Source of the DNA: Thermoanaerobaculia bacterium
GTDB taxonomy: Bacteria; Acidobacteriota; Thermoanaerobaculia; Gp7-AA8
Length of the DNA: 64,000 nucleotides
NCBI GenBank assembly: GCA_017883235.1
Contig: JADGNY010000005.1
Span: forward strand, 7,180 to 71,179
Reading direction: 5' to 3'
Part shown: piece after piece, positions 1,693 through 61,651 of the stretch
Layout of the letters: the number at the start of each line of letters is the position of its first letter
Position numbering within the stretch: position 1 is the stretch's first letter
Notes under the pieces: model-generated
Databases searched by the model: none
What the model saw: only the letters and a program-made list of their open reading frames with translations
Told to the model about the DNA's origin: nothing
Translations under genes and position numbers: made by a program

Positions 1693-2634
1693 CTACTTGG
1701 TGGGCGGCGGCGGCGGAGCAACAGTCGCCAACTGGCCGAGCACACTCTTCGCGATCGCCGGAACGAGCTTGACGTCGTCCGCCGTGCCTCGGGTCATGAT
1801 CACCAGGATCAGTTTTCGCCCGCCCGGCAGCTCGACGTACGCGGCATCGTGCCGGACCTCGGAGGTCCATCCCGCTTTCGACCATTCGCGCGAGCCGGCC
1901 GGCAACGACTCACCGATGAACTCCTTGACCTGGTTCTCGTCCGCGCGCGGCGGATTCAGAGGACGCTCGATCAGCGCCAGCATCGCGTCGCTGTCGGCGC
2001 CCGAGAGAGCGCGCTTCCGCGCGATCCAGAGAAGGAGGGCAGCAAACGAATTCGCGCTGGAACGGTTGCGGTTGGGCCGGGCGTCCCCACCCATGAGTTG
2101 CTTCTCGCGCCCGAACGGCCCGAAGCTCCACGGCTTGGCCATGGCGCTGATGTCGTAGCCCATCGAGGCAAACCAGCGGTTCACCACGCGCCGCTTTTCG
2201 ATGAACTTCGCCAGCGCGCGGCCCTCGAGATTCGGCCCCGGACAGGTGTCGCTGATGAGGTCGAGCAGAAAGGCGGTGGCGTCGTTGTCCGAGAGACGGA
2301 TCATCTCGCCCAACGCCCGCGCCACCTCCGGATCCGATTGAAGCTTCTGATGAAAGACCTCGGCCATGATGTAGAGCTTCACCACCGAGGCGGGATAAAA
2401 CGGCGCGTCGCCATGCCAGTCGCCGCGGTCGATCGTGGTCGGTTTCGTCACATCGACGATGCTGATGGCCAGGTTGTCCGCCGTCAGCTTCGGGAAATCC
2501 TTCAGCGTCTGCTCCGCCGCATTCTTCGCCGCCAGCTCCAACTCCGGATTCTTCGGCAGGTCGGTGAACTCGCGGAAGTTGGCAAAGGCGGAGGTGGCCA
2601 GGAGCACGAACAGAGCGGCGAATCGAATGCGCAT
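1693..2634 (-). CDS. Secreted class A beta-lactamase-like serine hydrolase
   Basis: Start chosen at MRIRFAALFVLLATSAFA (signal peptide). Motifs SVVK (SxxK), SDN and KAG are in the correct order. Confidence 0.75.
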   Translation of the reverse strand: MRIRFAALFVLLATSAFANFREFTDLPKNPELELAAKNAAEQTLKDFPKLTADNLAISIVDVTKPTTIDRGDWHGDAPFYPASVVKLYIMAEVFHQKLQSDPEVARALGEMIRLSDNDATAFLLDLISDTCPGPNLEGRALAKFIEKRRVVNRWFASMGYDISAMAKPWSFGPFGREKQLMGGDARPNRNRSSANSFAALLLWIARKRALSGADSDAMLALIERPLNPPRADENQVKEFIGESLPAGSREWSKAGWTSEVRHDAAYVELPGGRKLILVIMTRGTADDVKLVPAIAKSVLGQLATVAPPPPPTK

Positions 2635-2666
2635 GGTGGAATTGTAGCGGTCGTATACTCGGGGGG

Positions 2667-2876
2667 ATGATCCCCGACGATGAAACGTTTGAGGCGCTAA
2701 AACGCAAGACGGCGTCGATGACAATCCAGGAACGTGTCGCCTATTGCCTCGAGCTTGGAAGGCAAGAGATCCAGGCGTACGCTCTTGCAAACGGTGTAAC
2801 CGAAGATGAAGCCCGGCAGCGTTGGCGGCTTCGGAGTCAGTTCGGCCGGCGCTTCTCGCGGTGTAAAGCGGGATAG
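2667..2876 (+). CDS. Small hypothetical protein (69 aa)
   Basis: ATG preceded by a G-run, with non-Arg-rich helical composition. The 3' end runs into a REP element. Weak call. Confidence 0.25.
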   Translation: MIPDDETFEALKRKTASMTIQERVAYCLELGRQEIQAYALANGVTEDEARQRWRLRSQFGRRFSRCKAG

Positions 2877-2910
2877 GCGACTTGCTGCTTATTCTGGGAT
2901 GCACGGGGCC

Positions 2911-3093
2911 GGAGAGCGGGCATCTTGCCTGCTCCCGCCGGGCGTCTCGCGCGGCGGTGGGAGCGAACGTGATGCGGCTCTTTCGCCTGATAACCGAGTC
3001 ACTTCCTGCTACACACGTTCCTATTGTTCGTAATCTCAGAAACCACCGCCGGGCGAGGACGCCCGGCGGGAGCAGGCAGGATGCCCGCTCTCC
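2911..3093. repeat. Long hairpin REP/MITE-like element
   Basis: ggagagcgggcatcttgcctgctcccgccgggcgtc at the left end is the near-perfect reverse complement of gacgcccggcgggagcaggcaggatgcccgctctcc at the right end. Confidence 0.7.
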
Positions 3094-3147
3094 GCTACGG
3101 CGTCTGTCCGCGTTATCAGGCGGCGAATATGGTGTTGTCGCCCATCC

Positions 3148-5229
3148 CTACCGCCACCCCCTCACCCTCTCCGCGACCGCCTCCGGTGTGAAACCGAAGT
3201 GCTTCTCGATGTCCGCCAGCGGAGCTGACGCGCCGAAGCGGTCGATGCCGATGATGAGGGCGTCGTGGTTGACGTATTTGTACCAGCCGGATGAGCGGCC
3301 GGCTTCGATGGCGACGATGCGGCTGCGGTCGCCGAGGACCTCGTTCTGGTAGTCCTCAGGCTGGCGGTCGAAGATGTCGAGCGAGGGAGCGGAGACGACG
3401 CGGGCGCGGATGCCCTCGTCGCGCAGCAGCTCCGCGGTACGCACGGCCAGCGTCACCTCGGAGCCGGTAGCGATGAAGGTGAAATCGCCGTCGGCGTAGC
3501 CGTCGAGCACGTACGCACCACGCCAGATCTGGTGCGGATCGAAATCAGCGCCGTGCGGGATGATGTCGACCTTCTGCCGCGTCAGCACGATGATGGTCGG
3601 CCCTTCATGCTTGTTGCCGATCGCCCAAGCCCAGGCCATTCCGGTCTCGACGCCGTCGGCAGGACGGAAGAGGGTCATGTTCGGAATCAGGCGGAGCGAG
3701 AAGAGCTGCTCGACCGACTGATGAGTCGGACCGTCTTCGCCGAGGAAGACCGAATCGTGTGTGTAGACGAAGATCGACGGGATCTGCATCAGCGCGGCCA
3801 AGCGGATGGCAGGCCGCATGTAGTCGGAGAAGATCAGGAACGTCGAACCGTGGACGCGGAACGGACCGTAGAGGGTTATCCCGTTGAGCGCCGCGCCCAT
3901 GGCATGCTCACGGATGCCGAAATGGAGGTTCTTGCCCTTGAAGAGATCGAATGGCGGCGGGTCGTTGACGTCATCCTTCAACCGCTCGATCGAGCCGCCG
4001 TTCTTGAAGTTGGTCTTCGTCGATGATGCCAGATCCGCGGCGCCGCCGACGACGAACGGTGCGATGTCGCCGATCTTCTGGATAACCTGGTTCGACAGTT
4101 CGCGCGTGGCAATCGGCTTGTCGGTCTTTCCGGCATCCGCGAGCTGCAGCTCGAAACCCTCCGGCAGCGAATGCGACCAGCACGCGTCCCACTCCGCGGC
4201 GAGCTGCGGGTTGCGCGCGCGCCACTCGGCCATTCCGGTGTCCCACTGCTTGCGCGCCCGCGCCAGCCTCTTGACCTTGCGCGCGAACTCGGAGCGCACC
4301 TCGTCGGGAACGTAGAACGCCGGCTCGGCCGGCCACCCGAGGGCCACCTTCGTCGCCGCGGCCTCCTCGGGGCCCAGCGGTTCGCCGTGCGCGCGCGAGG
4401 TACCGTGGAACTTCGGACTTCCAAAGCCGATGACCGTCTTGGCCATGATCATCGACGGCTTGTCGGTGACCTTCTGCGCTTTGCGGATGGCTTTGCGCAC
4501 GGCGTCGCGGTCGTGGCCGTCGATCTTCTGCACATGCCAGTGCGCGGCTTCGAATCGCTTCTTCACGTCCTCCGACATCGAGAGACGCTTGTCGCCGTCG
4601 AGAGTCACGTCGTTGTCGTCATAGAGGTAGATGAGGTTGCCCAGCCCGAGGTGACCCGCCAGCGAGGCTGCCTCGGAGCTGATCCCTTCCTCCAGATCGC
4701 CGTCGGAGCAGATGACGTAGATCCAGTTCTGGACTGGCTTGAACGCATCGTCAGTATTGAAGCGCGCCGCCAGCATCTTCGAGGCGATGCCCATGCCGAC
4801 GCCGTTGGCGAACCCCTGGCCGAGCGGGCCGGTGGTGGCCTCGATGCCGGGAGCGTCGCCGTACTCGGGGTGACCGGCGGTCTTCGAGCCCCATTGCCGG
4901 AAGCTCTGCAACTGCTCCATGGTCATCTCCGGATAGCCGGTGAGATGCAGCAGCGAATAGAGGAGCATGGAGGCATGGCCGGCGGAGAGGACGAAGCGGT
5001 CGCGATCCTGCCACGACGGCTGCTTCGGATCGTGACGCAGGAAGTCGGTCCAGAGGACGAAGGCCATGTCGGCCATCCCCATCGGCGCGCCGGGATGTCC
5101 GGACTTCGCTTTCTCGACGCCGTCGATGGCCAGGAAGCGGATGGTGTTGACACAAAGCTCTTCGAGCTTGTCTTTGGTTCCGGCGATTGCGCTGCTGGCC
5201 TCGGCCGCTCCGCCCGTCTGTTCGTCCAT
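3148..5229 (-). CDS. tkt: Transketolase
   Basis: Start at MDEQTGG, with GGAGGAAG immediately upstream. Motifs: SGHPGAPMGMA, CSDGDLEEGIS, TGPLGQG and a conserved C-terminal domain. The track ORF extends to 5343. Confidence 0.95.
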   Translation of the reverse strand: MDEQTGGAAEASSAIAGTKDKLEELCVNTIRFLAIDGVEKAKSGHPGAPMGMADMAFVLWTDFLRHDPKQPSWQDRDRFVLSAGHASMLLYSLLHLTGYPEMTMEQLQSFRQWGSKTAGHPEYGDAPGIEATTGPLGQGFANGVGMGIASKMLAARFNTDDAFKPVQNWIYVICSDGDLEEGISSEAASLAGHLGLGNLIYLYDDNDVTLDGDKRLSMSEDVKKRFEAAHWHVQKIDGHDRDAVRKAIRKAQKVTDKPSMIMAKTVIGFGSPKFHGTSRAHGEPLGPEEAAATKVALGWPAEPAFYVPDEVRSEFARKVKRLARARKQWDTGMAEWRARNPQLAAEWDACWSHSLPEGFELQLADAGKTDKPIATRELSNQVIQKIGDIAPFVVGGAADLASSTKTNFKNGGSIERLKDDVNDPPPFDLFKGKNLHFGIREHAMGAALNGITLYGPFRVHGSTFLIFSDYMRPAIRLAALMQIPSIFVYTHDSVFLGEDGPTHQSVEQLFSLRLIPNMTLFRPADGVETGMAWAWAIGNKHEGPTIIVLTRQKVDIIPHGADFDPHQIWRGAYVLDGYADGDFTFIATGSEVTLAVRTAELLRDEGIRARVVSAPSLDIFDRQPEDYQNEVLGDRSRIVAIEAGRSSGWYKYVNHDALIIGIDRFGASAPLADIEKHFGFTPEAVAERVRGWR

Positions 5230-5422: not shown

Positions 5423-5719
5423 ATGAAAAAGGCCAGCGTGTCCGAAACGAAGAACAACCTCAGCGCGATCCTACGTCAGGTTCGAGAGGGAGAGAGCTAC
5501 CTCATCGTCGATCGAGGCAACCCCGTCGCGCGGCTCGATCCGGTGACTGCGGAGGACAAAGGAGAGGACCAACGGCGCGCGGACCTGGAGCGACGAGGTA
5601 TTCTTCGTCGAGGGCTCGGAAAAATCCGCAAGGAGATCGTCGACACAGCGCCTCCCTCTCTGCCGAAGAACGTCAGCGCGCTCGCCTTGCTGCTCGACGA
5701 GCGAGAAACAGGACGATGA
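5423..5719 (+). CDS. Type II antitoxin, Phd/YefM-like (VapB role)
   Basis: MKKASVSETKNNLSAILRQVREGESYLIVDRGNPVARL is typical of the Phd/YefM N-terminus. It has a 4-nt ATGA overlap with the downstream PIN gene. Confidence 0.8.
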   Translation: MKKASVSETKNNLSAILRQVREGESYLIVDRGNPVARLDPVTAEDKGEDQRRADLERRGILRRGLGKIRKEIVDTAPPSLPKNVSALALLLDERETGR

Positions 5720-6150
5720 AGTTCTGGGACAGTTCGGCGGTCATCCCGCTTCTGGTCACGGAATCGATGACTCCCGCCGTCCGCGACATCCTCACCAAGG
5801 ATCGCCAAATGCACGTCTGGTGGGCAACGGAAGTCGAGTGCGTTTCGGCGCTCGCTCGCCTCGAACGGGAAAAACCGGGAGCCTCAATCTCCATCGAGAC
5901 CGCCTTCGATCGTCTTAACGCTCTACGCGAAGACTGGAGCGAGATTGCCGCTGTAAACATCGTGCGCGACGTCGCCAAACGTCTTTTGAGAGTCCATGCT
6001 CTGCGCGCCGCAGACTCACTGCAGTTGGCAGCCGCGTCGGTTCTTGCCGACGGCGATCGTGACTCGGTGACCGTCGTCTCCCTCGACGATCGCCTGCGGG
6101 ATGCGGCGCGCCGGGAAGGGTTCCCGCTACTTCCGCAGCGGGCGCAGTGA
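5716..6150 (+). CDS. vapC: PIN-domain toxin VapC
   Basis: MKFWDSSAVIPLL... has the acidic-residue layout of a PIN domain (D5, E, D near SLDDRL). It is coupled to the antitoxin. Confidence 0.8.
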   Translation: MKFWDSSAVIPLLVTESMTPAVRDILTKDRQMHVWWATEVECVSALARLEREKPGASISIETAFDRLNALREDWSEIAAVNIVRDVAKRLLRVHALRAADSLQLAAASVLADGDRDSVTVVSLDDRLRDAARREGFPLLPQRAQ

Positions 6151-6299
6151 GACCGCAATCGTGAAGACGGCCAAGTGTTGAGAAACAAAGCTCCGGCCCC
6201 GTGAGCTCCACTGTGAGCTCCACTCGACGCGAAGGCTTCCCAGCTACTTCCGCAGCAGACACAGTGAGGCGTTCAGCTCCTCGTATGCGTACGTCGCAC

Positions 6300-6950
6300 T
6301 CACGTATGGTTCACGCTGGTGTAGATCCGGGTGAACGCACCCGCCTGCACGACAGACGTTGGCGGATCGATCTCGTGCAGCCAAGGCTGGCCGCGGAAGG
6401 AATCGTCGCCGTAGAAGATAGTAGCGATGCGGATCAGCTTCGCGGCGGCGATGCGCTCAAGCGCGGCGACCACATTCGGGAGCACGGTTTGATAGAACGG
6501 GTGGTACATGAAGTAGACCGTACCATCGTCGATCGGCGCATGGACAACATCGCCGGTACGGACATCGACACGGTTGGCCAAGCCGAGGTTTGCGGCGGCG
6601 GTGGTGGCGTGGGCCACGCGCTCGGGTAACAGCTCGACTCCGCGGAAACGCGCCGGAGCGACGAGCGCGCCATACAACAGCACGCGCCCGTAACCGCAGC
6701 CGAGGTCGTAGAAGACGTCATCGGCGGTCAGCGTCAGACGGTGGAAGAGGTCGCGAAGCGCGCAGAAGGCGGTTCCCCCGTAGACGAAGTTGTTCTTTCC
6801 CGCTGCGTTGATGACGCCGCGCAGGTCGAGGCTGCGCTCGATGGATGATGCGTCGATGCCGAGGAGCGCATCGAGTGAATCCTCACTCCCGTCGTCATCG
6901 CCGCCGTGGAAGGTGCGGATTGCATGGGAGGCAACATTCACCATTGACAA
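6300..6950 (-). CDS. Class I SAM-dependent methyltransferase
   Basis: Motif I VFYDLGCGYGRVLL, followed by an acidic loop (GVELL) and DVVHAPIDDGTVYFM. Confidence 0.7.
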   Translation of the reverse strand: MSMVNVASHAIRTFHGGDDDGSEDSLDALLGIDASSIERSLDLRGVINAAGKNNFVYGGTAFCALRDLFHRLTLTADDVFYDLGCGYGRVLLYGALVAPARFRGVELLPERVAHATTAAANLGLANRVDVRTGDVVHAPIDDGTVYFMYHPFYQTVLPNVVAALERIAAAKLIRIATIFYGDDSFRGQPWLHEIDPPTSVVQAGAFTRIYTSVNHT

Positions 6951-19449: not shown

Positions 19450-22400
19450 CTACTTCTTCGCGCTCGGCGCCCGCTTCGGGAACGGCGGGCGGACGTCCTT
19501 CTGCGGTGGATTGGCGGCGAGTTGTTTCATCGCCACTTCGATCGCTTTCTCGAGCTGCGGGTCGCGTCCGGCGATGATGTCGGCCGGGGTCTGTTCGACG
19601 TCGAGATCCGGTGGCACGCCTTCGTTCTCGACCACCCAACCTTCCGGAGTCCAGATGCCGAGGTTCGGCGCGGTGATGGCACCGCCGTCCATCAACATGG
19701 GAAATCCGAGGATGCCGACGAGGCCGCCCCAAGTGCGCTTCCCGACCAGCGTCCCAAGCTGGAGTTTGTGAAACATCCACGGCAGAAGATCGCCGCCCGA
19801 GCCGGCGGTCTCGTCGATGATCATCACCTTCGGTCCCTGGATCGACGCCAGCGGTGTCTTCAGGTCGCCGCCGTAGCGCATGGCCCAGTGGCTGATCATC
19901 GGACGGCGGAGGATGTCGATGTAGTAGTCGGCCACGCTGCCGCCGCCGTTGTGGCGCTCGTCGACGATGATGGCGTCGCGGTCGGCCTGCGGGAAGAAAT
20001 AGCGTTTGAAGTAGGTGTAGCCGGCGCCGGCGGTGTTCGGCACATAGACGTAGGCGACGCGCCCGTTGGTGGCCTCGGTGACCTTGCGCAGGTTGCCTTC
20101 CACCCAATCGCGGTTGCGAAGGTTCAATTCGTCTTCGATGGGGACGACCTTCACGACGCGCGAGCCGCTGCCGTCGGCGTTCGGTCCGACCGTAAGCTCG
20201 ACGATGCGCCCCGCGGTCTGTTCGAAGCGGCTGTAGAGATCTTCGGGATACTTGAGATCTCTGCCGTCGACCGCGAGGAGGTACTCCCCTGCCTTCACAT
20301 CGACGCCGGGCTCGGTGAGCGGCGAGCGGAGCTCGGGGTTCCAATTGAGACCGCCGTAAACCTTGGCGAAGCGATAGCGGCCGTTGTCGACTTTGTAGTC
20401 GGCGCCGAGCAGGCCTCCGGGGATCGACTCGACATCGGCGAGGGAATCGCCGCCGCCGAGGCGATGATGGCCGACGGAAAGCTCGGACGACATCCACATC
20501 ATCACGCGATTGAGATCGCCGCGCACCGTCAGGTCGGGAAGGAAGACGGCGTACTTGGCGCGCATGGCGTTCCAGTCGGCGCCGTGCATGTCGGGGTCGT
20601 AGAAGTAGTCGCGGTTGATGCGCCAGGCCTCATCGAAGATCTGCCGCCATTCGGCACGCGGATCGATCTTCACCTGGATCTTGTCGATGGCGAGCTTGAA
20701 CTTGGAAGGATCGAGCTTCTCGCCGACGTCGATGAGGGCCAGACCGTCTTTGTCGAGCAGCATCCGCTTCCCGTCGGCGGAGAGCTGGAAGTCGTCGACC
20801 TTCTCGAGCAGCGTCTCTTCCTTGCGCTTTTCGAGGTCGAAGCGCTGCAGGCTCTTCTCCTCGCTGCCGGAGCGGTTGAAGCCAGCCGATTTGAGATAGA
20901 AAATCTGGCCGCTCTTGCCGACCTGCAGCGAGTCGTAACCGGCGGGTTTCGGTGGCAGCGACACGATCCGCTGCGTGAGGCCGTCGAAGTCGACGACGAC
21001 CTTGACCGTCTTCGCGGCCGCGCTCTTGGTCTTGTCGGCGCTGGCCTTCTCGTCGGCCGGCTTGTCGCTTGCCTTCGTCTCCGGCTTCATGGCCGATTCG
21101 TCGGCGGACTTGGCGGTCTCTTCGTCGCTTTCCTTAGCGATCGGCGAGACGACACCCTTCGCCAGAACGGCCAGGTAGATCGACTGGGTCGAGCGGAGGT
21201 CTGCGTTGGACTGTGCAAACCAATCCTCGACCGGGCCGGCATCGGTCGAGGCGAGGAAGTAGAGGTACTTGCCGTTCGGATCGAACACCGGCTGGCTGGC
21301 GTCGGTGTAGGGATCGGTGAGCGGGTACGACTTCTTCTCGCTGACCGAGTAGAGATAGATGCGGTTCATGTACGTCTGCGTGTTGCGCGTGTAGGCCAGC
21401 CACTGCGAGTCGGGCGACCAGGAGTGGTTGAGCACGCGCACTGGGCCGTAGAGGACGTCGCTCGACACTTTGTCGCCGGCGCCGGTAGCGACGTCGACGA
21501 CATGGATCGAGCGCGAGTTGTCGGCAAAGCTGATCTTCTTCGAGTCGGGAGACCACTTCGGGTCGTCGTAGAAACCGGCGCCGTCGATCTTGATCTCGCG
21601 CGGCGTCCCCTTCCCTTCCTGGTCGCCGATGTAGAGGCGGTACTCGCCGCCGCGGTCGGAGAACCAGGCGATCGACTTGCCGTCCGGCGACCAGGCCGGC
21701 GAACGGTCGTTCGCGGCGGGGGTGTTCGTCAGATTGCGGTCGTCGCCTTTCTCGCGCGGCACCGTGAAGATCTCGCCGCGGAACTCGAACGCCGCTCGCG
21801 CACCGGAGGGCGAGATTGAAGCATTGCGGATGTACTTTTTTCCTTTGACGAAACGCGGCAGCGACTCGACGAGGTCGGCGGCGACGCCGACCTTGAGGCG
21901 GTTGTCGCTGGCCGTCTTCGGATCGAGCAGATGGATGTAGCCGGCCTGTTCGTAGATGACTTTGCCGCCGCCGGCCGATGCGTTCACGACGGGGAAGTCG
22001 GTGTGATTCGTCAGCCGCGTGATCTTCTTCGTGGCGGGGTCGTAGCTGTAGATGTTGAACTCACCGTCGCGGTCGGAGCGGAAGTAGATCCTGCCGTCGA
22101 GCCACATCGGATCGGTGTCGTTGCATCGGCCCGCCGGCTGCGGTACGTGCTCGGTGGCGTAGGTGGCCGTATCGAAGATGACCAGGTTCGAGACCTGCCC
22201 GCCGCGGTAGTGCTTCCACTCGTTGAAGGCGTCGCCGAGCGGGACGTAGACGATCTTCTTTCCGTCCGATGAGAAGACCGCCTTGGCCGCATGCGGAATG
22301 GGAAGCTTGGTGGCCATCCCGCCGCCGACCGGTACCGTGAAGAGCTGGACGTAGCGTCCGGTGTAGACCTCGCGCGGCGAGGTGAAGAGTACGTTCGCTC

Positions 22401-22758
22401 CATCCGGGGTGAATCCGAGCGCGACGTCGTTCCTCGGGTGCCACGTCAGCCGCTTCGGCACTCCCCCCTCGGACGGGACGATATAGACGTCCGTGTTGCC
22501 CTCGTATCGTCCGGTGAAGGCGATCCACTTCCCGTCGGGCGAGAAGCGGGGCCCCGATTCGATGCCGGGATGCGACGTCAGCCGCCGTACACCGGTGCCG
22601 TCGAGGTTCGCCACCCAGATGTCGTTCGCGTATGCGAAGGCGATGCGGTCGCCGCTGACCGCGGGATCGGAGAGAAGACGGGTGTCGTGAATGTCGACCG
22701 CGAGGAGCGGCAGTGCGGACAGCACGAGGACGGAAAGCAGCAAGGCACGAACGCGCAT
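19450..22758 (-). CDS. Tricorn protease homologue (S41 family, beta-propeller plus PDZ plus peptidase)
   Basis: 1102 aa with a signal peptide, then LSDPAVSGDRIAFAYANDIWVANLDGTGVRRLTSHPG.E..PRFSPDGKWIAFTG.YEGN.DVY, the typical tricorn N-terminus. The C-terminal S41 core is ...DERHNGGG.... Confidence 0.9.
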   Translation of the reverse strand: MRVRALLLSVLVLSALPLLAVDIHDTRLLSDPAVSGDRIAFAYANDIWVANLDGTGVRRLTSHPGIESGPRFSPDGKWIAFTGRYEGNTDVYIVPSEGGVPKRLTWHPRNDVALGFTPDGANVLFTSPREVYTGRYVQLFTVPVGGGMATKLPIPHAAKAVFSSDGKKIVYVPLGDAFNEWKHYRGGQVSNLVIFDTATYATEHVPQPAGRCNDTDPMWLDGRIYFRSDRDGEFNIYSYDPATKKITRLTNHTDFPVVNASAGGGKVIYEQAGYIHLLDPKTASDNRLKVGVAADLVESLPRFVKGKKYIRNASISPSGARAAFEFRGEIFTVPREKGDDRNLTNTPAANDRSPAWSPDGKSIAWFSDRGGEYRLYIGDQEGKGTPREIKIDGAGFYDDPKWSPDSKKISFADNSRSIHVVDVATGAGDKVSSDVLYGPVRVLNHSWSPDSQWLAYTRNTQTYMNRIYLYSVSEKKSYPLTDPYTDASQPVFDPNGKYLYFLASTDAGPVEDWFAQSNADLRSTQSIYLAVLAKGVVSPIAKESDEETAKSADESAMKPETKASDKPADEKASADKTKSAAAKTVKVVVDFDGLTQRIVSLPPKPAGYDSLQVGKSGQIFYLKSAGFNRSGSEEKSLQRFDLEKRKEETLLEKVDDFQLSADGKRMLLDKDGLALIDVGEKLDPSKFKLAIDKIQVKIDPRAEWRQIFDEAWRINRDYFYDPDMHGADWNAMRAKYAVFLPDLTVRGDLNRVMMWMSSELSVGHHRLGGGDSLADVESIPGGLLGADYKVDNGRYRFAKVYGGLNWNPELRSPLTEPGVDVKAGEYLLAVDGRDLKYPEDLYSRFEQTAGRIVELTVGPNADGSGSRVVKVVPIEDELNLRNRDWVEGNLRKVTEATNGRVAYVYVPNTAGAGYTYFKRYFFPQADRDAIIVDERHNGGGSVADYYIDILRRPMISHWAMRYGGDLKTPLASIQGPKVMIIDETAGSGGDLLPWMFHKLQLGTLVGKRTWGGLVGILGFPMLMDGGAITAPNLGIWTPEGWVVENEGVPPDLDVEQTPADIIAGRDPQLEKAIEVAMKQLAANPPQKDVRPPFPKRAPSAKK

Positions 22759-22847: not shown

Positions 22848-22997
22848 GGAGCGCTGGCGTCTCGCCGGCTGGCCCGGGGGCGTCTCGCCCCCGGACTGCA
22901 AGACTCGATACATTCGCCTGGTAACCTCAGCGGCGAGACCCTTCGGCTTCGCTCAGGGCAGGCTCTGCCGAGCCAGCCGGCGAGACGCCAGCGCTCC
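22848..22997. repeat. Hairpin REP/MITE-like element, same family (copy 2)
   Basis: It has the same terminal arms as 19276-19402 (ggagcgctggcgtctcgccggctggcccgggggcgtctcgcc ... gccagccggcgagacgccagcgctcc). Confidence 0.8.
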
Positions 22998-23138
22998 GGC
23001 CGCGAATCGCTCAAGTTGAGGCCATTGCGGTTTCAACCGGTTTCACATCGATTCTGCTGGGAATCGTAAATCGTTCACAAGCTTGCACTTAGGAAGCACG
23101 AGGTGAAACTGCCTGGCGGTAATAAGGCGGAATCATTG

Positions 23139-23670
23139 TTTGCGATGCCGCAACCAACGGTTGCGATGCCGCAAGCAACGGTTGCGATGCCGCAAGCAAC
23201 GGTTGCGATGCCGCAACCAACGCTTGCGATGCCGCAACCAACGCTTGCGGTGCCGCAACCAACGCTTGCGATGCCGCAACCAACGCTTGCGATGCCGCAA
23301 CCAACGCTTGCGATGCCGCAACCAACGCTTGCGATGCCGCAACCAACGGCTTGCGATGCCGCAACCAACGCTTGTGATGCCGCAACCGACGCTTGTGATG
23401 CCGCAACCAACCGCTTGCGATGCCGCAACCAACGCTTGCGATGCCGCAACCAACGCTTTGCGATGCCGCAACCGACGCTTGTGATGCCGCAACCAACCGC
23501 TTGCGATGCCGCAACCAACGCTTGCGATGCCGCAACCAACGCTTTGCGATGCCGCAACGAATGCTTACGATATCGCAAAGAATGATTGCGATGCCGCAAA
23601 GAGTGCTTGCGATACCGCAAAGAACGATTGCGATGCCGCAACCGCTGGTTCGGATCTCGCAAAAACTTCA
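23139..23670. repeat. Minisatellite: about 25 tandem copies of a 21-bp unit TTGCGATGCCGCAACCAACGC
   Basis: Counted by eye, there are about 24 clear units plus one degenerate unit. Five units are 22 bp. Each unit contains the hairpin (g)ttgcg-atgc-cgcaa(c). An 86-bp higher-order duplication is present (about 23380-23465 versus 23466-23551). The units decay toward the right end. Confidence 0.9.
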
Positions 23671-23709
23671 CGGAACCAGGCAGAGAGGTTCGATCAGCAG
23701 GACCGATGT

Positions 23710-23733
23710 GGCACAGACACTCTTGTCTGTGCC
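23710..23733. repeat. 24-bp palindrome ggcacagacactcttgtctgtgcc (REP family B)
   Basis: The same palindrome occurs at 13237, 13388 and 23982. Confidence 0.7.
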
Positions 23734-23759
23734 AATTGCCGCGTTAGCGGCAACGAGAA

Positions 23760-23938
23760 GGTAGCCAGGGGTGCGAGCGTTTTTTGCGAGCACCCCTGGT
23801 AACGAGATGCCTGGTTTGGTGCCGCGTCAGCGGCACTTGAGTAGTCGGGGAGTCCATCCAGTGCCGCTGACGCGGCACGATTTCAGATCGCACCTGTTCC
23901 AGGGGTGCTCGCAAAAAACGCTCGCACCCCTGGCTACC
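23760..23938. repeat. MITE-like nested hairpin with 40-bp perfect terminal inverted repeats
   Basis: 23760-23799 (ggtagccaggggtgcgagcgttttttgcgagcacccctgg) is the exact reverse complement of 23899-23938. An inner inverted repeat pairs gtgccgcgtcagcggcac with gtgccgctgacgcggcac. Confidence 0.75.
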
Positions 23939-24072
23939 GTCTTGAGCCGCTATCGCGGCGTCGTAACGTCCAATCTTCAGGGGCACAGACACTCTTGTCT
24001 GTGCCTGTCTCCGGCTTGAATCCGCCGGGTTGCTGGGTCTCGCGTTCGGCGTACCCAGCAACCCTCCAATAG

Positions 24073-25008
24073 CTACGCCTTCGGCTCCGCCGGTTCCGGT
24101 GTCCCCGTCAACTGGCGCTGCGCCATCGCGGCCATGCCCATCAGGCCGCCCATCCCCATCGACTCCACCGCCGTCGACGGGACGATCATCATCGCGCCCT
24201 TCTCCTTGAGGCCTTCGTAGAGCATGTTCATGGCTCGGAGATGCAGCGCTGTCGGGTTGTCGTGATACGAGATCGACGCTGTCTGGAAGAGCTTGGCGAT
24301 CTCCACTTCCGCCTCGCCGAGGATGATGCGGGCCGCTTTCTCGCGCGTGGCCTGCGCCTCGCGCGACATGGCGTCCTGCAGGGCATCGGGGATGATCACG
24401 TCGCGCATCTCCACCGACTGCACGGTCACGCCCCAGGGATTGCAGCGGGCATCGATCAACTCCTGAAGTTGCTCTTCGATCTTCTCCCGGCCGCGCAGCA
24501 GATCGCTCAGCGACGTGCGCCCGATGATGTCGCGCAACGCGGTCTGCGCCGCCCAGCTCACCGCATCCTGATACTGCTGCACTTCCAGCGCCGCCTTCTC
24601 CGCGTCGTAGACCATCCAGAAGAGGACGGCGTCGACGTTGACCGGCACCGTGTCGGATGTCAGCGTCTGTTCGGCGGCGAAGCTGGTGGTGATAACGCGC
24701 TGGTCGATCCACGACGACACGCTGTCGATGAACGGCACGATCCAGAAGAGTCCTGGTCCGTGCAGTCCGATGAATTTGCCGAGGCGCAGAACGACCGCCT
24801 TCTCCCACTGCTTGGCCACCTTCGGCGATTGCATCAGGACGAGACCGAGAACGGCACCGCTGATGATCCACACCGGATTCTCCGTGGTGATGACACCAGC
24901 CAGTCCGATGAGCACCGGAACGACCAGGACGAAAATCGCCACGATGTTGGGGCGCGGCTGGGTCCCGGCACGATTGCGCTCTCTGTTGGGGATAGTGATG
25001 GCTAACAT
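24073..25008 (-). CDS. SPFH/Band 7 (slipin/stomatin-like) membrane protein
   Basis: Two N-terminal TM helices, then KQWEKAVVLRLGKF...TSDTVPVNVDAVLFWMV...GVTVQSVEMRDVIIP. Confidence 0.85.
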   Translation of the reverse strand: MLAITIPNRERNRAGTQPRPNIVAIFVLVVPVLIGLAGVITTENPVWIISGAVLGLVLMQSPKVAKQWEKAVVLRLGKFIGLHGPGLFWIVPFIDSVSSWIDQRVITTSFAAEQTLTSDTVPVNVDAVLFWMVYDAEKAALEVQQYQDAVSWAAQTALRDIIGRTSLSDLLRGREKIEEQLQELIDARCNPWGVTVQSVEMRDVIIPDALQDAMSREAQATREKAARIILGEAEVEIAKLFQTASISYHDNPTALHLRAMNMLYEGLKEKGAMMIVPSTAVESMGMGGLMGMAAMAQRQLTGTPEPAEPKA

Positions 25009-31725: not shown

Positions 31726-33531
31726 TTAAGCGATCTCCGCGATCTCCTCCTCAAGGGTCTGTCGTCGATAGAGATTTGCGTAGTAGCCGTCCTGCTCGAG
31801 AAGCGCGTCGTGCGTCCCTCGCTCGACGATGCGTCCGTCGTCGATGACGATGATGGTGTCGGCGTCCTTCACCGACGAGACGCGGTGCGAGACGATCAGC
31901 GCGGTGCGGCCTTTGCGGATCTCGCGCAGCGCGCGGAGGATCTGCTCCTCCGTATTCGTGTCGACCGCGCTCAGGGAATCGTCGAGAATCAGGATGGCCG
32001 GGTCGCGGACGAGAGCGCGCGCGATCGCCGTCCGCTGCTTCTGCCCGCCCGACAGCGTGATGCCGCGCTCTCCGATCAGCGTCTCCAATCCCTGCGGGAA
32101 AGAAGCGACGTCGCCCGACAGGCCGGCCAGACCAGCCGATTCCTGAACGTCCTGCGGCGATGCATCGCGGCGCCCGAAGCGGATGTTCTCGGCGATCGAT
32201 TCGGAGAAGAGGAAGGTCTCCTGCGGAACCGCGCCGATCCACTGGCGGAGTTGCGAGGTCGGGAACGATTCGATCGGCCGACGGTCGATCAGGATCGTCC
32301 CCGGCGGCGGCTCGAAAGTCCGCGTGATCAGCGCCAGCAACGTCGACTTCCCGCTTCCGGTCCGCCCGACGATGCCGACCGTTTCGCCGGGACGGACATG
32401 GAGATCGATGTCGCGCAGTGTTGGCCGGGACGATCCGGCATAGGTGAACGTGAGGTGGCGAATCTCGATCTCGCCGCGCACCGGTACGAGCACGCGCTCC
32501 CCCGAGTCAGCCTGAACCTCAGGCTGGATCGACCACACCTCGTGCAGGCGCACCATCGAGGCCATACCGCGCTGGAAAAGATTCGTCACCCATCCGAGCG
32601 CGATGAGAGGCCAGACCATCCTGCCGAGATAGAGCTGAAAGGCGATGAAACTTCCGATCGAAAGCGTGCCGAGGATCATGGCCCGGCTGCCAAGGTAGAA
32701 GATCAGACAGAAGAGCAGCCCGATCATCGCGTGCAGGCCGGGATAGAACATCGCCGTAAGCTTGATGACGGTGCGGTTGCGCTCGACGTACTCCCGGTTC
32801 ATCGCCGCGAACAACTGGCCCTCCGCGCGCTCCCGTCCGAACGCGCGCACCACCCGCACGCCGGCCAGGTTCTCCTGCACGCGCGCCGAGATATCGCCGA
32901 AATAGTCCTGCACGGCTTTGAACTTCACATGAATCCGCTGGCCGAAGTACCGCACCATCAGGATGATCACCGGCACGGAAATCAGAGAGAGGAGCGCCAT
33001 CTCCCGATTGATCCGCAGCATCATCACGAAGGCGCCGATGACGACGATCAGCGACGAGAGCGAATGCATGACGGCCGGCCCGATCAGCATCCGTACCGAG
33101 GCCAGGTCGTTCGTGGCGCGGGAGAGGAGATCGCCCGTGCGCTGCTCCTGGTAGTAGGCCACCGGCAGCGACTGCAGATGCCCATAGAAGTCGTTGCGCA
33201 TCTCATATTCGATGCGCCGCGACTCCCCGATGATGATGCGGCGCTGCAGCAAAAGGAAAAGCCCTTCGCACATCGCCGTGCCGACGAGCAGGAGCCCGTA
33301 GCGGACCATCACCCCACGCCTGACCGCCGTCGCCAGCTCGTTGACCGCGCTGCCGATGATGAGCGGCTTGAGCAGCGAGAACCCCGCCGAGGCGATCACG
33401 CAGAGCCCACCGAGCGTCAGGGCCGACTTGTGCCGGGCGAAGTATCCGAAGAGTCGGCGGAGGGGAGAGGGAGTCGGTGGCAATGTTGTTGGATGTCGAT
33501 GTCCGTATCGACGGCTTCGACCGCCCATCAT
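31726..33531 (-). CDS. ABC exporter, fused permease/ATPase, subunit A
   Basis: Six TM helices, GRTGSGKST, LSGGQKQ and ILILDDSLS. The start codon is uncertain within the first 30 codons or so. Confidence 0.9.
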   Translation of the reverse strand: MMGGRSRRYGHRHPTTLPPTPSPLRRLFGYFARHKSALTLGGLCVIASAGFSLLKPLIIGSAVNELATAVRRGVMVRYGLLLVGTAMCEGLFLLLQRRIIIGESRRIEYEMRNDFYGHLQSLPVAYYQEQRTGDLLSRATNDLASVRMLIGPAVMHSLSSLIVVIGAFVMMLRINREMALLSLISVPVIILMVRYFGQRIHVKFKAVQDYFGDISARVQENLAGVRVVRAFGRERAEGQLFAAMNREYVERNRTVIKLTAMFYPGLHAMIGLLFCLIFYLGSRAMILGTLSIGSFIAFQLYLGRMVWPLIALGWVTNLFQRGMASMVRLHEVWSIQPEVQADSGERVLVPVRGEIEIRHLTFTYAGSSRPTLRDIDLHVRPGETVGIVGRTGSGKSTLLALITRTFEPPPGTILIDRRPIESFPTSQLRQWIGAVPQETFLFSESIAENIRFGRRDASPQDVQESAGLAGLSGDVASFPQGLETLIGERGITLSGGQKQRTAIARALVRDPAILILDDSLSAVDTNTEEQILRALREIRKGRTALIVSHRVSSVKDADTIIVIDDGRIVERGTHDALLEQDGYYANLYRRQTLEEEIAEIA

Positions 33532-33651
33532 TCAACATTCAACACGGAACATTCAACCTCTCAGTGTGCCGCAACCGCCTGGTTCCACATCTCTTCCTTC
33601 ACCCGGCACTTGCCATCATGGAGGCTTTGCTGAGTGATCGCATCGATAACT

Positions 33652-34394: not shown

Positions 34395-34641
34395 TCTGGC
34401 CAGAGTATAGCTAAAGCAGTGATGCCGGAGGCATTCCTGACTCGCGGTGCGAGCGCAGGTTGTGAGAAGGGTTGAGCCGCGGAGAGGCGACATCTCAGTC
34501 GGCTCGAATTTCCGAAATGTCGCCGCTCCGCGGCTCGACTTTCTTGATGCCTGGGTTCCCAGCGCTGACGCACTGGGCTACGTAGATTTCGCCGCTCCGC
34601 GGCTGAGGCCCAGCGCGCGCCTGGCATTTTTGCAAAGCGAC

Positions 34642-45534: not shown

Positions 45535-45612
45535 GGCGGTGTAGCTCAGATTGGTTAGAGCGGGCGTCTCATAAGCGCTAGGTCACTGGTTCGACTCCAG
45601 TCACCGCCACCA
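45535..45612 (+). tRNA. tRNA with CAT anticodon (elongator Met or lysidine-modified Ile2)
   Basis: Cloverleaf by hand: acceptor ggcggtg/caccgcc, D arm gctc..gagc, anticodon loop ctCATaa (CAT at 45570-45572), T arm actgg-ttcgact-ccagt, and an encoded CCA. Confidence 0.85.
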
Positions 45613-52637: not shown

Positions 52638-53063
52638 TCAGTGGGGCAATGGCAGGTTCCAGAAGAACTGAGAGATTCGTACGAGAAGCGGGTCAGGCAC
52701 GGCAGCGCCAGCTTCGTTCAGCCGCTTCACTTCTTCGTTGATGCGAGCGAGCTCTTGCCTGTCAAGCCAGAAACCATGGCAACCGGGGCAGTAGTCAAGG
52801 ATGATCGTGGTGTCGATGTTGAAGTCGACTTTACGCATCTGGATATCGGCATCGCGCGGACAGTCAATTGGCCCGTATTCATCCTCGTGTTGAAATGAAT
52901 CGCCATCTACGGTCGAGAATTCGAGATCGCCAGGAGTGGGATCGGCGAGGCGGTTCAGTTGTCCATGTTCCAGGAACATCCCACCACAGAGCGGACAGGT
53001 TTGGACCGATGTCTGCCCGATCGATTTAGTTTCCAGGACTGCAGCATCACGCGGACAGTTCAT
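52638..53063 (-). CDS. Double zf-TFIIB-type zinc-finger protein
   Basis: Two modules: CPRDAAVLE...CPLCGGMFLEHGQL and CPRDADIQM...CPGCHGFWLDRQEL. Confidence 0.7.
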   Translation of the reverse strand: MNCPRDAAVLETKSIGQTSVQTCPLCGGMFLEHGQLNRLADPTPGDLEFSTVDGDSFQHEDEYGPIDCPRDADIQMRKVDFNIDTTIILDYCPGCHGFWLDRQELARINEEVKRLNEAGAAVPDPLLVRISQFFWNLPLPH

Positions 53064-59527: not shown

Positions 59528-60160
59528 TCAGCCGCGGTTGATCTGCGCGACATCGAACACCCCGCCGCCGATCCACTGGCCGCTCATCTGCACGTAGTCG
59601 CCGGGGCGCAGGTTGCGGACGTTGGAAAGGCCGCCGGCGGTCATCTCCGCGGTGATCAAACGGCCGGTTGCCTGGTCGCGGACGACGAGCGTGTTGTCGC
59701 GGTAGTCGATGCGGGCGATCACGCCGTTCACGTAGCCGTTGCCGTATGCGTAGCCTGCCACGGCGCCGGGGTAGCTCACGGCATCAAAGGCAATCGAACC
59801 GCCGCGGAAGGTGCCGCCGAGGCTGATCGAGACGCCGGCGCGGAGGTCGCGGTCGCGGTTCCCGAAGGTCGAACGTGGCACCCCGTACGACTGGCCTCGA
59901 TCGAGTTGCACGCGATACCCGTCGCGCTCGCGGCTGAACGAGCTGACCTTGCCGGACATCGTGACGCGCTGATTCTCGCGATTGCCGTTATTCGCCTGCC
60001 GATTGTCGCCGTTGCGCGCATCGGTCGTCTGTCTGCCGCGGTCGTTGTTGTTGCGGTTTCCGTCCCAGCGCGACTGCGCGAAAGACGGCGCCGCCAGAAG
60101 AAGGGCGATCGCGCCCGCTCCTGCTGCTTTCGTTGCCCACTTCGTCACTGTCGTTTTCAT
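59528..60160 (-). CDS. Secreted hypothetical protein (Asn/Arg/Gly-rich linker plus beta domain)
   Basis: Start at MKTTVTKWATKAAGAGAIALLLAAPSFA (signal peptide). No family recognised. Confidence 0.6.
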   Translation of the reverse strand: MKTTVTKWATKAAGAGAIALLLAAPSFAQSRWDGNRNNNDRGRQTTDARNGDNRQANNGNRENQRVTMSGKVSSFSRERDGYRVQLDRGQSYGVPRSTFGNRDRDLRAGVSISLGGTFRGGSIAFDAVSYPGAVAGYAYGNGYVNGVIARIDYRDNTLVVRDQATGRLITAEMTAGGLSNVRNLRPGDYVQMSGQWIGGGVFDVAQINRG

Positions 60161-60284
60161 ATTGTTCTCCTTGTGTTGCACACGGAAAGACAGTCCCGGA
60201 GAGAGCGTTCTTTCGCCCGAAACACCAACGGCATGCGGGTGTTACGAGGTGCATCTTTCGGCGCCGAACGGCGGCACGGCCGCG

Positions 60285-60776
60285 CTACGGAGCCGGCTGC
60301 TCTCCGCCGGCGGCCGCCGCTTTCTTACTTTTGCCCCGGATGTGGTTCGTCTGTTTCATCATCTCGACGAAGGGAATCAGATCGGAGTGTTCCTTCTTCT
60401 TGACGAGACCGCGCAGTACCGTGTAAATCTGCAGGACGGCCTGCCCGAGGTTATGGCGGCGCTTGAGGTTGGCTGCCTTGACGCCAGCCAGCATCGCCGT
60501 CAGCTCAACCTCCACCGCCGTCCAATGTGCGGCGTCCTCGTTCTGCGTCCGGAGTTCTTCGGCCGTCATGCCGGTGAGCGATTGCGTCCCAGGATAGGCT
60601 CCGGCAGCACTGAGGCCGGCGCTGACGAACTCAGGATTGAGGTGAGCAACCCGCACCATCGACTGCGCCTGCTGAACGGGCAGTTGGCCGTAGTTCGGGA
60701 CTCGCTCGCGAAGCCTCCGCAGTTCCTGAACAAGCTCTTCAGGCTCGATCGGCACGACTTGGGTGTCCTCGTTCAT
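60285..60776 (-). CDS. Hypothetical all-helical protein (163 aa)
   Basis: ATG start with GAGGGAGGG upstream. Unbiased composition and a basic C-terminal tail. It lies directly next to the palindrome array. Confidence 0.55.
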   Translation of the reverse strand: MNEDTQVVPIEPEELVQELRRLRERVPNYGQLPVQQAQSMVRVAHLNPEFVSAGLSAAGAYPGTQSLTGMTAEELRTQNEDAAHWTAVEVELTAMLAGVKAANLKRRHNLGQAVLQIYTVLRGLVKKKEHSDLIPFVEMMKQTNHIRGKSKKAAAAGGEQPAP

Positions 60777-60794
60777 ATTGATGCCCTCCCTCGT

Positions 60795-61118
60795 TTGATG
60801 ACCAGCTCCATCAACGTAGCGATGATAGGAGTTCTCATGTGATGAAGGTCTGCATCTCGCTTGATGACTGATGGCATCAACGCACCTTCACGGTTTACCC
60901 TGTTTGATGAATGGCTCCATCAGTCTTGATGAATCACTACATCAACGTCGAAGCTCGACATTAGGACGTTGATGTTACTGCTCAACACCGTTGATGTGCA
61001 CTCTCATCAACGAAGACGTGTCGGCTTACAGCGTTGATGATGCTGGTCATCATCGTTGATGCAAGCTGGCATCAATTGAGAGATAGTACATCCCTCGTTT
61101 GATGACTGGCGACATCAA
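60795..61118. promoter_or_regulatory. Phased array of ten TTGATG-N8-CATCAA palindromes (candidate multi-operator or nucleoprotein assembly site)
   Basis: The sites are at 60795, 60839, 60861, 60904, 60926, 60969, 60991, 61034, 61056 and 61099, each 20 bp long. Centre-to-centre spacings are 44, 22, 43, 22, 43, 22, 43, 22 and 43 bp. Confidence 0.75.
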
Positions 61119-61195
61119 CGACCCTCGCTGCCGCTCTCAACGTTCCGCTATCATCCCGAAAACACATGGCTGTTGGATCAAACGAAGGGGAACGA

Positions 61196-61651
61196 ATGCC
61201 GTCACGAAAGAGTCCGTCAATTCTCGTATTCGCCTTGACCGCGATCGTTTCGTTCGCGTCCGTTGCTCACGGCGGCGCGCCGCTGAAAGGAGTCGACGTC
61301 AAACTCGGAAAGAGCCCCGGTGGCGGAGCCTCTGCCCGGACGACGAACGCGGAGGGCAAGATCGACCTCGGCGTGCTTCCCGCCGGCTCGTACTACATCG
61401 TCATCGACGCTCCGAAAGGTGCCGACGTGAACAAGGAGCCCGACGCGCAGATCGAGATCCACGGCGCAAAGGGCGGGACGATCAAGAAGCGCTGGAGCTA
61501 CGCGCAGAAGAAGGCGTTCGACGTCACCGCGGACGCGACCGCAAGAACCGGAGGCGAAGAGAAGATCCTCTTCACAGCCGACGGCAGCCATCCCGTCGAC
61601 ATCGCGGCCACGGCAGTGGTTAGGGCGAAATCGAACATCAGCAACAACTGA
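61196..61651 (+). CDS. Secreted small protein (Ig/CarboxypepD_reg-like beta sandwich guess)
   Basis: Start at MPSRKSPSILVFALTAIVSFASVAHG. ...TNAEGKIDLGVLPAGSYYIV. The track start is at 61166. Confidence 0.55.
   Translation: MPSRKSPSILVFALTAIVSFASVAHGGAPLKGVDVKLGKSPGGGASARTTNAEGKIDLGVLPAGSYYIVIDAPKGADVNKEPDAQIEIHGAKGGTIKKRWSYAQKKAFDVTADATARTGGEEKILFTADGSHPVDIAATAVVRAKSNISNN

Follow-up and report, generated by a model that had tools for sequence, protein, structure and literature searches.

An array of two-turn-phased palindromes beside the gene of an uncharacterised helical protein family in a Thermoanaerobaculia bacterium

Contig JADGNY010000005.1 of a Thermoanaerobaculia bacterium (phylum Acidobacteriota) carries, within the 64 000-nucleotide (nt) stretch analysed here (the window), an array of ten TTGATG-N8-CATCAA palindromes directly upstream of a minus-strand gene (60285-60776) for a 163-amino-acid (aa) protein. 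We find that this array is a local instance of a not-yet-described, family-wide module made up of a two-turn-phased repeat array and an uncharacterised helical protein. Weighing the sequence evidence, we put at about even the chance that the array serves as a platform on which the adjacent 163-aa protein binds cooperatively, and through which it would control at least its own promoter. Phased arrays of operators, iterons or centromere repeats are a well-known means of assembling cooperative protein-DNA complexes. In this case such arrays go with a large unannotated protein family, in a soil phylum that is abundant but little studied.

Ten palindromes on a two-turn lattice

An earlier note on this DNA, prepared from the letters alone, had placed ten sites in the region between the 163-aa gene and its divergent neighbour. 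All ten are found at the coordinates it gave, and the start-to-start distances of 44, 22, 43, 22, 43, 22, 43, 22 and 43 bp are reproduced. Six of them match the motif perfectly; two deviate at one position, one at two and the site at 60839 at three. Homologs of the 163-aa protein were taken with their DNA context from metagenomes and metagenome-assembled genomes (MAGs), and their loci are cited below by L numbers. The features of the array are as follows.

60795..61118 (no strand): whole array, ten 20-bp TTGATG-N8-CATCAA palindromes on a lattice of about 21.7 bp, with self-identity at a lag of 65 bp
60795..60814: site 1, TTGATGACCAGCTCCATCAA, perfect; nearest the gene, 18 nt from the ATG; half-sites invariant among relatives
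60839..60858: site 2, gTGATGAAGGTCTGCATCtc, weak, with three mismatches (gTGATG..CATCtc); on the lattice; a one-mismatch site in L007, L013 and L014
60861..60880: site 3, TTGATGACTGATGGCATCAA, perfect
60904..60923: site 4, TTGATGAATGGCTCCATCAg, one mismatch
60926..60945: site 5, TTGATGAATCACTACATCAA, perfect
60969..60988: site 6, TTGATGTTACTGCTCAaCAc, two mismatches
60991..61010: site 7, TTGATGTGCACTCTCATCAA, perfect
61034..61053: site 8, TTGATGATGCTGGTCATCAt, one mismatch
61056..61075: site 9, TTGATGCAAGCTGGCATCAA, perfect
61099..61118: site 10, TTGATGACTGGCGACATCAA, perfect; flank tccctcgt in common with site 1
60778..60783 (no strand): extra isolated half-site TTGATG, one base off the start codon; conserved in L007 and L013
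60784..60792 (minus strand): Shine-Dalgarno sequence GAGGGAGGG of the 163-aa gene, read from the sequence, between the extra half-site and site 1

Every site lies within 1 bp of a 21.67-bp lattice, in slots 0, 2, 3, 5, 6, 8, 9, 11, 12 and 14. The array is most simply described as five tandem 65-bp units, each composed of a strong site, a 23-24-bp spacer, a weaker site and 2 bp. Under this description the two end sites, which had been called unpaired, no longer stand apart, while the common flank reported for them, tccctcgtTTGATGAC, is indeed found at both ends of the array. The sites had also been said to face one side of the helix. Since 65 bp correspond to 6.19 turns of 10.5-bp DNA, the sites drift by about 23° per lattice step, so that they keep to a common face only roughly.

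The density of sites far exceeds chance. Allowing up to two mismatches, the motif occurs 15 times in the window, against 1.39 ± 1.36 times in 100 dinucleotide shuffles, none of which reaches 15, and the 324 bp of the array hold all six perfect matches and nine of the 15. All five window copies of the octamer CATCAACG also fall in the array, and self-identity at lag 65 is highest there (0.555, against a window mean of 0.255 with a standard deviation of 0.037). Two of the ways in which the earlier note thought its observation might dissolve, a chance density or a generic repetitive extragenic palindromic (REP) family, are not borne out within the 64 kb. Tandem Repeats Finder does not report the 65-bp repeat, because the N8 cores and the 21-24-bp spacers vary from unit to unit. 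GC content in the array region falls no lower than 0.46, a minimum that the motif itself accounts for.

Some repeat classes were rejected. REP sequences and bacterial interspersed mosaic elements do not fit, as all perfect sites of the 64 kb lie in one array and the weak matches checked elsewhere lie in coding sequence. A clustered regularly interspaced short palindromic repeat (CRISPR) array does not fit either: the conserved parts are two 6-bp half-sites around variable cores, and no Cas Pfam match occurs among the open reading frames (ORFs) scanned on either side. Nor does a type III toxin-antitoxin system, whose candidate repeats here are not near-identical; there is no terminator between array and gene, and searches of PADLOC and Pfam with the protein gave nothing.

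Minor observations on the motif and its flanks can be added. Three two-mismatch matches occur within 640 bp at 33008-33646, each inside a long ORF, and we treat them as coding background. The 8-nt flank tccctcgt that the end sites have in common lies at 60787-60802 and 61091-61106. Its gene-proximal copy is part of the minus-strand Shine-Dalgarno sequence, the distal copy precedes only a 13-codon ORF, and in L007 an ACGAGG flank is likewise present at both end sites. Its presence at both ends possibly goes back to a duplication by which the array arose.

Selection acts on the half-sites

The array was aligned with those of four distinct close relatives (L007, L013, L014), in which the protein is 87-93% identical. 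Variable columns make up 11 of 120 (9%) in the half-sites, compared with 28 of 80 (35%) in the N8 cores and 50 of 124 (40%) in the inter-site spacers (Fisher p = 3.5e-9). This footprint indicates that the array is under selection acting on the motif, not on the entire repeat. Seen in the orientation of the gene, the left half is degenerate in the second site of every 22-bp pair, a polarity that is present in the relatives as well. Together with a lattice that is kept across more distant clades, whose proteins are only about 60-65% identical (see below), the half-site footprint fits phased palindromes such as dimeric proteins bind, as had been proposed from the window sequence.

The same comparison bears on whether the array could be a neutral minisatellite or REP-like repeat without specific function. 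In four family loci (L001, L008, L048 and L058) entire units are almost identical to one another, which hints at a recent amplification, and the window contains a second tandem array; both would fit a neutral repeat. In the window clade, however, homogeneity is confined to the half-sites, the cores and spacers having diverged, the motif is not scattered over the rest of the window, and motif, lattice and orientation to the gene are maintained across clades with 57-66% protein identity. We therefore regard a neutral origin as very improbable.

Arrays are linked to the 163-aa gene family

The earlier note had suggested comparing orthologous intergenic regions, and doing so shows motif and lattice conserved upstream of 163-aa homologs. 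The motif and its 22/43-44-bp lattice are retained, with unrelated spacers, upstream of homologs that are 57-66% identical (L001, L008, L010, L025 and L017): L001 has 12 sites with a 66-bp period, L008 has 10 sites, L010 and L025 have sites spaced 43-44 bp, and L017 has N7 and N8 variants spaced about 43 bp. In L012 the half-sites are altered symmetrically, giving TCGATG-N8-CATCGA at 43-44 bp.

What lies on the far side of the array differs among these clades. In the window, the array fills the intergenic region before a divergent gene (61196-61651, plus strand) that opens a tilS-hpt cluster. In L001, L008 and L010, the far-side neighbour is a zinc-ribbon (PF13453) gene, whose homolog in the window is located at 52641-53063, 7.7 kb from the array, and the CarboxypepD_reg-like/tilS/hpt cluster is found elsewhere or on the opposite side. 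The divergent tilS-side operon is thus an incidental neighbour, and on this comparative evidence the array goes with the 163-aa gene, not with the tilS operon. The description of an array filling a divergent intergenic region holds for the window; as a general layout it does not, since sister clades have the zinc-ribbon gene at the far flank and an array that lies upstream of a conserved promoter.

A lag-autocorrelation scan was made of 36 related loci (2-12 kb each, some duplicated, e.g. L014/L023 and L022/L054). Upstream of most homologs there is a periodic array with a lag of 21-22, 42-44 or 63-66, and in 23 of the 36 loci an array of that period, no more than 1.3 kb upstream of the homolog, outranks every other periodic signal of the locus. 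The 64-kb window contains only two arrays of such period. Across the wider family each lineage has its own repeat unit, placed upstream on a two-turn lattice throughout:

L021: GAGGAAC-N7-GTTCCTC on a 21-bp lattice
L058: GTGAC-N8-GTCAC, period 43
L060: CTCACC-N4-GGTGAG, period 43
L061: TTCACCCGGTG, 21-22 bp
L020: CGTTCGCGAACG, 22 and 65 bp
L022: 64-bp units
L018, L044 and L048: true direct repeats of 21-22 bp

The direct 21-22-bp repeats of distant family members number from 14 to more than 20. Two genomes hold more than one module. Contig DASYJF010000114.1 (L017) has two, at 2570-3477 and 5480-6462, about 3 kb apart and with differing arrays, which argues for locally encoded, dedicated binders; MAG BP_57 (L019, L020) has two paralogs, each with its own distinct array. 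Apart from the 163-aa family itself, no conserved partner gene was found beside the arrays, and the downstream genes are mutually unrelated across the family. Arrays that are uniform internally, lineage-specific and tied to one gene family form the pattern expected of a dedicated, co-evolving binder encoded there. The 163-aa protein, put forward earlier as a candidate binder because of its position, is the sole gene that stays linked to such arrays, which supports its candidacy.

At L002, whose homolog is 58% identical, an AT-rich region of about 340 bp (2860-3200) with scattered GTCAATA/TATTGAC-type inverted repeats stands in place of an array; it could be a diverged counterpart.

Promoter geometry and leaders

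In the sister clades (L001, L008, L010, L012, L017 and L025) a conserved TTGACA-N17/18-TTCCAT element is followed by 5-6 nt and the ATG, with no Shine-Dalgarno sequence. This arrangement suggests a leaderless-type promoter and a leaderless mRNA. The element lies between array and gene and so places the array at about -70 to -420. The window clade has lost this promoter and has a Shine-Dalgarno junction in its place, and the array ends 18 nt short of the ATG; the promoter of the window gene must therefore lie inside the array. The elements concerned are:

L001 5966-6000, L008 1067-1101, and L025, L010/L043, L012 and L017: sister-clade promoter-like element, in the last ~35 nt before the ATG
60825..60830 (minus strand): candidate -10-like hexamer TATCAT within the array, held with low confidence; GATAAT in L013
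61139..61161 (plus strand): conserved block of near-invariant alignment columns containing TATCAT (61149-61154); a possible promoter element of the divergent gene, judging from its conservation
L048 1340-1705, L044 2074-2441, L053 2077-2441, L017 6218-6462, L018 1100-1236 and L058-L061 about 4680-5000: leader of about 330 nt between promoter and gene

Distant family members have the order array, promoter, conserved leader, gene. The promoter of L018 (TTGACT-16-TATAAT) agrees with 11 of 12 consensus positions. The leader, which is absent from the window clade, has the invariant core GAGC..GCTCCTCC. It gives no Rfam match, and the alignment is too rough for a consensus fold with RNAalifold. The leader of these distant members may be a new cis-regulatory RNA. 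Recognition of the arrays by guide sequences in the leader was rejected, as the longest word a leader has in common with its own array averages 8.4 nt, against 8.6 nt for other arrays.

These promoters also bear on the idea that the palindromes function at the RNA level, forming consecutive hairpins in a 5' untranslated region or in a small RNA. Each site can form a stem of 6-8 bp, and the minus-strand transcript folds far better than shuffled sequences (z = -5.7). Against this, departures from the palindrome over the ten sites are mostly uncompensated (five pairs broken, one compensated), all stems have one sequence in common, and the direct-repeat arrays of distant family members have no hairpin potential. 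Moreover, the conserved sister-clade promoter lies between array and gene, so that the array is not part of that mRNA, and there is no Rfam match at gathering score between 60 and 62 kb of the window. We consider a role as RNA hairpins highly unlikely.

The 163-aa protein family

The 163-aa protein (60285..60776, minus strand) belongs to an uncharacterised family and is all-helical in its models; the array linkage described above makes it the proposed cognate binder. A profile search of 1.84 billion representatives places the family in at least 473 clusters at 50% identity. Every organism-named genome match is to a Thermoanaerobaculia or Acidobacteriota MAG, one of the matches coming from a complete 6.6-Mb chromosome. 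Two AlphaFold models were made, the second with AlphaFold2 on a 55-sequence alignment. The protein is modelled confidently (pLDDT 91.9, pTM 0.72) with no beta strand and with helices at residues 12-25, 34-44, 48-60, 64-68, 72-124 and 128-143. Conserved residues in the family include R20, R23, W85, E91, G98, N103, R106, R107 and Y118, and the long helix and the tail are basic. It is from genomic context, not from the fold, that we infer DNA binding by this protein.

Domain fusions were considered as a clue to function and discarded: longer family members are start-codon miscalls that translate the upstream array, and no fused domains occur. For P0111, P0028, P0128 and P0146, for example, public gene calls begin too far upstream, which gives a spurious repetitive N-terminus derived from the array.

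A proposed autoregulatory platform

We propose that the array is the DNA half, and the product of 60285-60776 most likely the protein half, of a two-part module. Dimers of the 163-aa protein would read TTGATG-N8-CATCAA, with half-site centres 14 bp apart. Dimers bound two or four helical turns apart on the lattice would touch each other, leading to cooperative occupancy, and within each 65-bp unit the strong site could nucleate binding while the weaker site fills in. The resulting nucleoprotein complex of about 325 bp would blanket the region upstream of the gene, including the necessary location of its promoter, and would make expression of the gene, and perhaps also of the divergent operon, respond like a switch. 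The sites, their phasing, the selection on them, the gene linkage and the lineage-specific repeats are observed; from these we infer who binds and how the protein oligomerises, and the regulation that would follow may be positive or negative.

Several observations weigh against this proposal. A separation of 14 bp between half-site centres is unusual for compact helix-turn-helix dimers, and a consensus promoter scan over the window array found none. The protein has no match in Pfam, NCBIfam, PHROGs (E < 0.01), PADLOC or PDB sequence profiles, and a Foldseek search with its models found no neighbour in the PDB (best E = 1) or BFVD. It is only mildly basic (pI 8.0), and its first 70 residues form an acidic N-terminal stretch. 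Some homologs have no array upstream (L004-L006 and L002). Finally, no 163-aa family gene is present beside the second array of the window (23140-23643) or elsewhere in the 64 kb, so such arrays are not always next to a family gene. It is mainly because of this second array that our confidence in the adjacent protein as the binder stays near the even mark.

The second array consists of 23.8 copies of a 21-bp unit, TTGCGATGCCGCAACCAACGC, with 91% matches and a palindromic core TTGCG-N4-CGCAA. Its periodicity is the most marked in the window (lag-21 identity 0.95), and it is flanked by genes for a Tricorn-like protease (19450-22758, minus strand) and an SPFH protein (24073-25008, minus strand). 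Its partner may be a paralog encoded beyond the window, the array may be a relic, or such arrays may have a life of their own.

Part of this evidence favours another arrangement, in which the array truly binds a protein that is encoded elsewhere and the 163-aa gene is merely a regulated target. The lack of a recognisable DNA-binding domain or structural neighbour in the 163-aa protein, the array without a family gene and the homologs without arrays all point that way. The repeats, however, change fast and differently in each lineage, even between the two modules of one contig, and an unlinked regulator would have to co-diversify every time; nor is any other gene conserved near the arrays. We judge a binder encoded elsewhere to be unlikely on balance.

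Returning to binding by the adjacent protein, a wider proposal can be made with less than even confidence. The 163-aa family would be a new class of sequence-specific DNA-binding proteins without a detectable PDB neighbour, forming hundreds of distinct protein-array pairs in Acidobacteriota. Each protein would polymerise on its own two-turn-phased array of about 300 bp beside its gene, as a self-contained switch or chromosomal landmark, and some genomes would hold several modules as well as gene-less arrays. With a fixed geometry and repeats that vary by lineage, such modules would be a natural series of matched pairs of protein and DNA site. They would help to decipher a new DNA-recognition code, and synthetic biology could draw on them for parts that do not interfere with each other.

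The motif had not been recognised as a known operator by the earlier note, and this still stands. To our knowledge, none of the ARG box, CIRCE, HAIR, PadR, matS, parS, NrdR and LexA-variant motifs fits TTGATG-N8-CATCAA. Nor did full-text searches of the literature, on the motif or on the architecture, return anything relevant.

Comparison with known phased arrays

The closest parallels in layout are plasmid iterons (F oriS/RepE, P1 RepA, R6K pi and pPS10 RepA). These too have many 17-22-bp repeats on a two-turn lattice of about 22 bp, in an array beside a small gene, in our case one thought to encode the binder, and with a replicon-specific repeat sequence; in distant members of the 163-aa family the repeats are even true direct ones, after which come a promoter and the gene. 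In contrast, the window sites are inverted repeats with divergent cores, in which Tandem Repeats Finder sees no tandem unit, and direct repeats are confined to distant family loci. An iteron-type origin was rejected on these grounds, although the 22/43/44-bp lattice fits, and also for want of a Rep initiator: the adjacent protein has no Pfam or NCBIfam match, Rep and winged-helix domains included, and its model is all-helical. A replication origin was rejected as well, as no TTATCCACA DnaA box (up to one mismatch) lies nearer than 3.9 kb to the array and an AT-rich unwinding element is lacking; the chromosomal location is stable.

Centromeres of partition (par) systems (parC/ParR of R1 and pB171, sopC/SopB of F, tubC/TubR and the omega heptads of pSM19035) likewise have phased arrays upstream of, or overlapping, the promoter of the binder gene. 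Their cooperative binding builds a higher-order complex, as we propose for the window array, and sopC, with a 43-bp period and one palindrome per unit, resembles it in particular. Adjacency of array and gene and their apparent co-variation are found here too. A partition centromere was nevertheless rejected. A ParA, ParM or TubZ partner is missing, the downstream gene encoding a secreted protein without a Pfam match; the 163-aa protein matches no ribbon-helix-helix, ParB-type helix-turn-helix or winged-helix domain and its model has no beta strand; and the sister-clade arrays end before the core promoter.

These likenesses raise the question of whether the adjacent protein binds in a mainly architectural role, be it centromere-like, iteron-like (handcuffing or pairing) or nucleoid-anchoring, with the array placed by the gene because the protein loads near its site of synthesis. 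Ten to 25 sites are far more than autoregulation needs. A two-turn lattice with such repeat numbers is like that of plasmid iterons and of the parC and sopC centromeres; the long runs of direct repeats in distant members, and the sister-clade arrays that lie wholly upstream of the core promoter, agree with this. Yet no partner NTPase, Rep-type initiator, DnaA box or AT-rich unwinding element was found nearby, the locus is chromosomal and syntenic, beside tilS, hpt and ftsH, with one relative on the complete chromosome mentioned above, and the 163-aa family was not found among viral contigs. We hold a mainly architectural role to be quite improbable; were the complexes architectural, they would amount to an unrecognised layer of chromosome organisation in Acidobacteriota.

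Operators of the lambda OR/OL type are similar in having palindromes about 22-24 bp apart centre to centre, with strong and weak pairs, clustered by the repressor gene between divergent transcription units. The window differs in having ten sites rather than three, in its half-site separation of 14 bp, and in showing neither a helix-turn-helix match nor a prophage context. Compared with phage-type operators in general, the palindromes and the gene adjacency are present, while the promoter scan is empty, PHROG matches are lacking at E < 0.01 and no relative occurs in viral contigs. A phage or plasmid origin was rejected for this last reason, the lone match to the DNA pattern in the viral contigs being a chance match in coding sequence.

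The ArgR hexamer binds as one oligomer to paired ARG boxes, two palindromes of about 18-20 bp that lie 2-3 bp apart, or about 21-22 bp centre to centre, a spacing like that of the 22-bp pairs described here. The ARG box is TNTGAATWWWWATTCANW. The window sequence is unrelated to it, five pairs are present instead of one or two, and no ArgR-like gene adjoins the array.

Neighbouring genes and other features of the window

Two genes border the module:

59528..60181 (minus strand): secreted protein of about 200-217 aa, directly downstream of the 163-aa gene; no Pfam match
61196..61651 (plus strand): secreted CarboxypepD_reg-like protein, first gene of the tilS-hpt cluster; divergent neighbour, adjacency to the array not conserved

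The first is conserved at this position in the window clade and in the sister clade with 63-66% identity (L001, L008), not family-wide. The second is probably outside the module, given the different far-side neighbours in other clades.

Right after the second array, 23700-24000 holds a long composite inverted repeat with nested hairpins (ggcacagacactcttgtctgtgcc; ccaggggtgcgagcg...cgctcgcacccctgg) that resembles REP sequences or miniature inverted-repeat transposable elements, and related GC-rich repeats (ggcgagacgcc...) are found at about 22850-23000. Two Rfam matches at gathering score were also noted: an Acido-Lenti-1 small RNA at 34558-34604 (plus strand, 37.1 bits) and a tRNA at 45535-45609 (plus strand).

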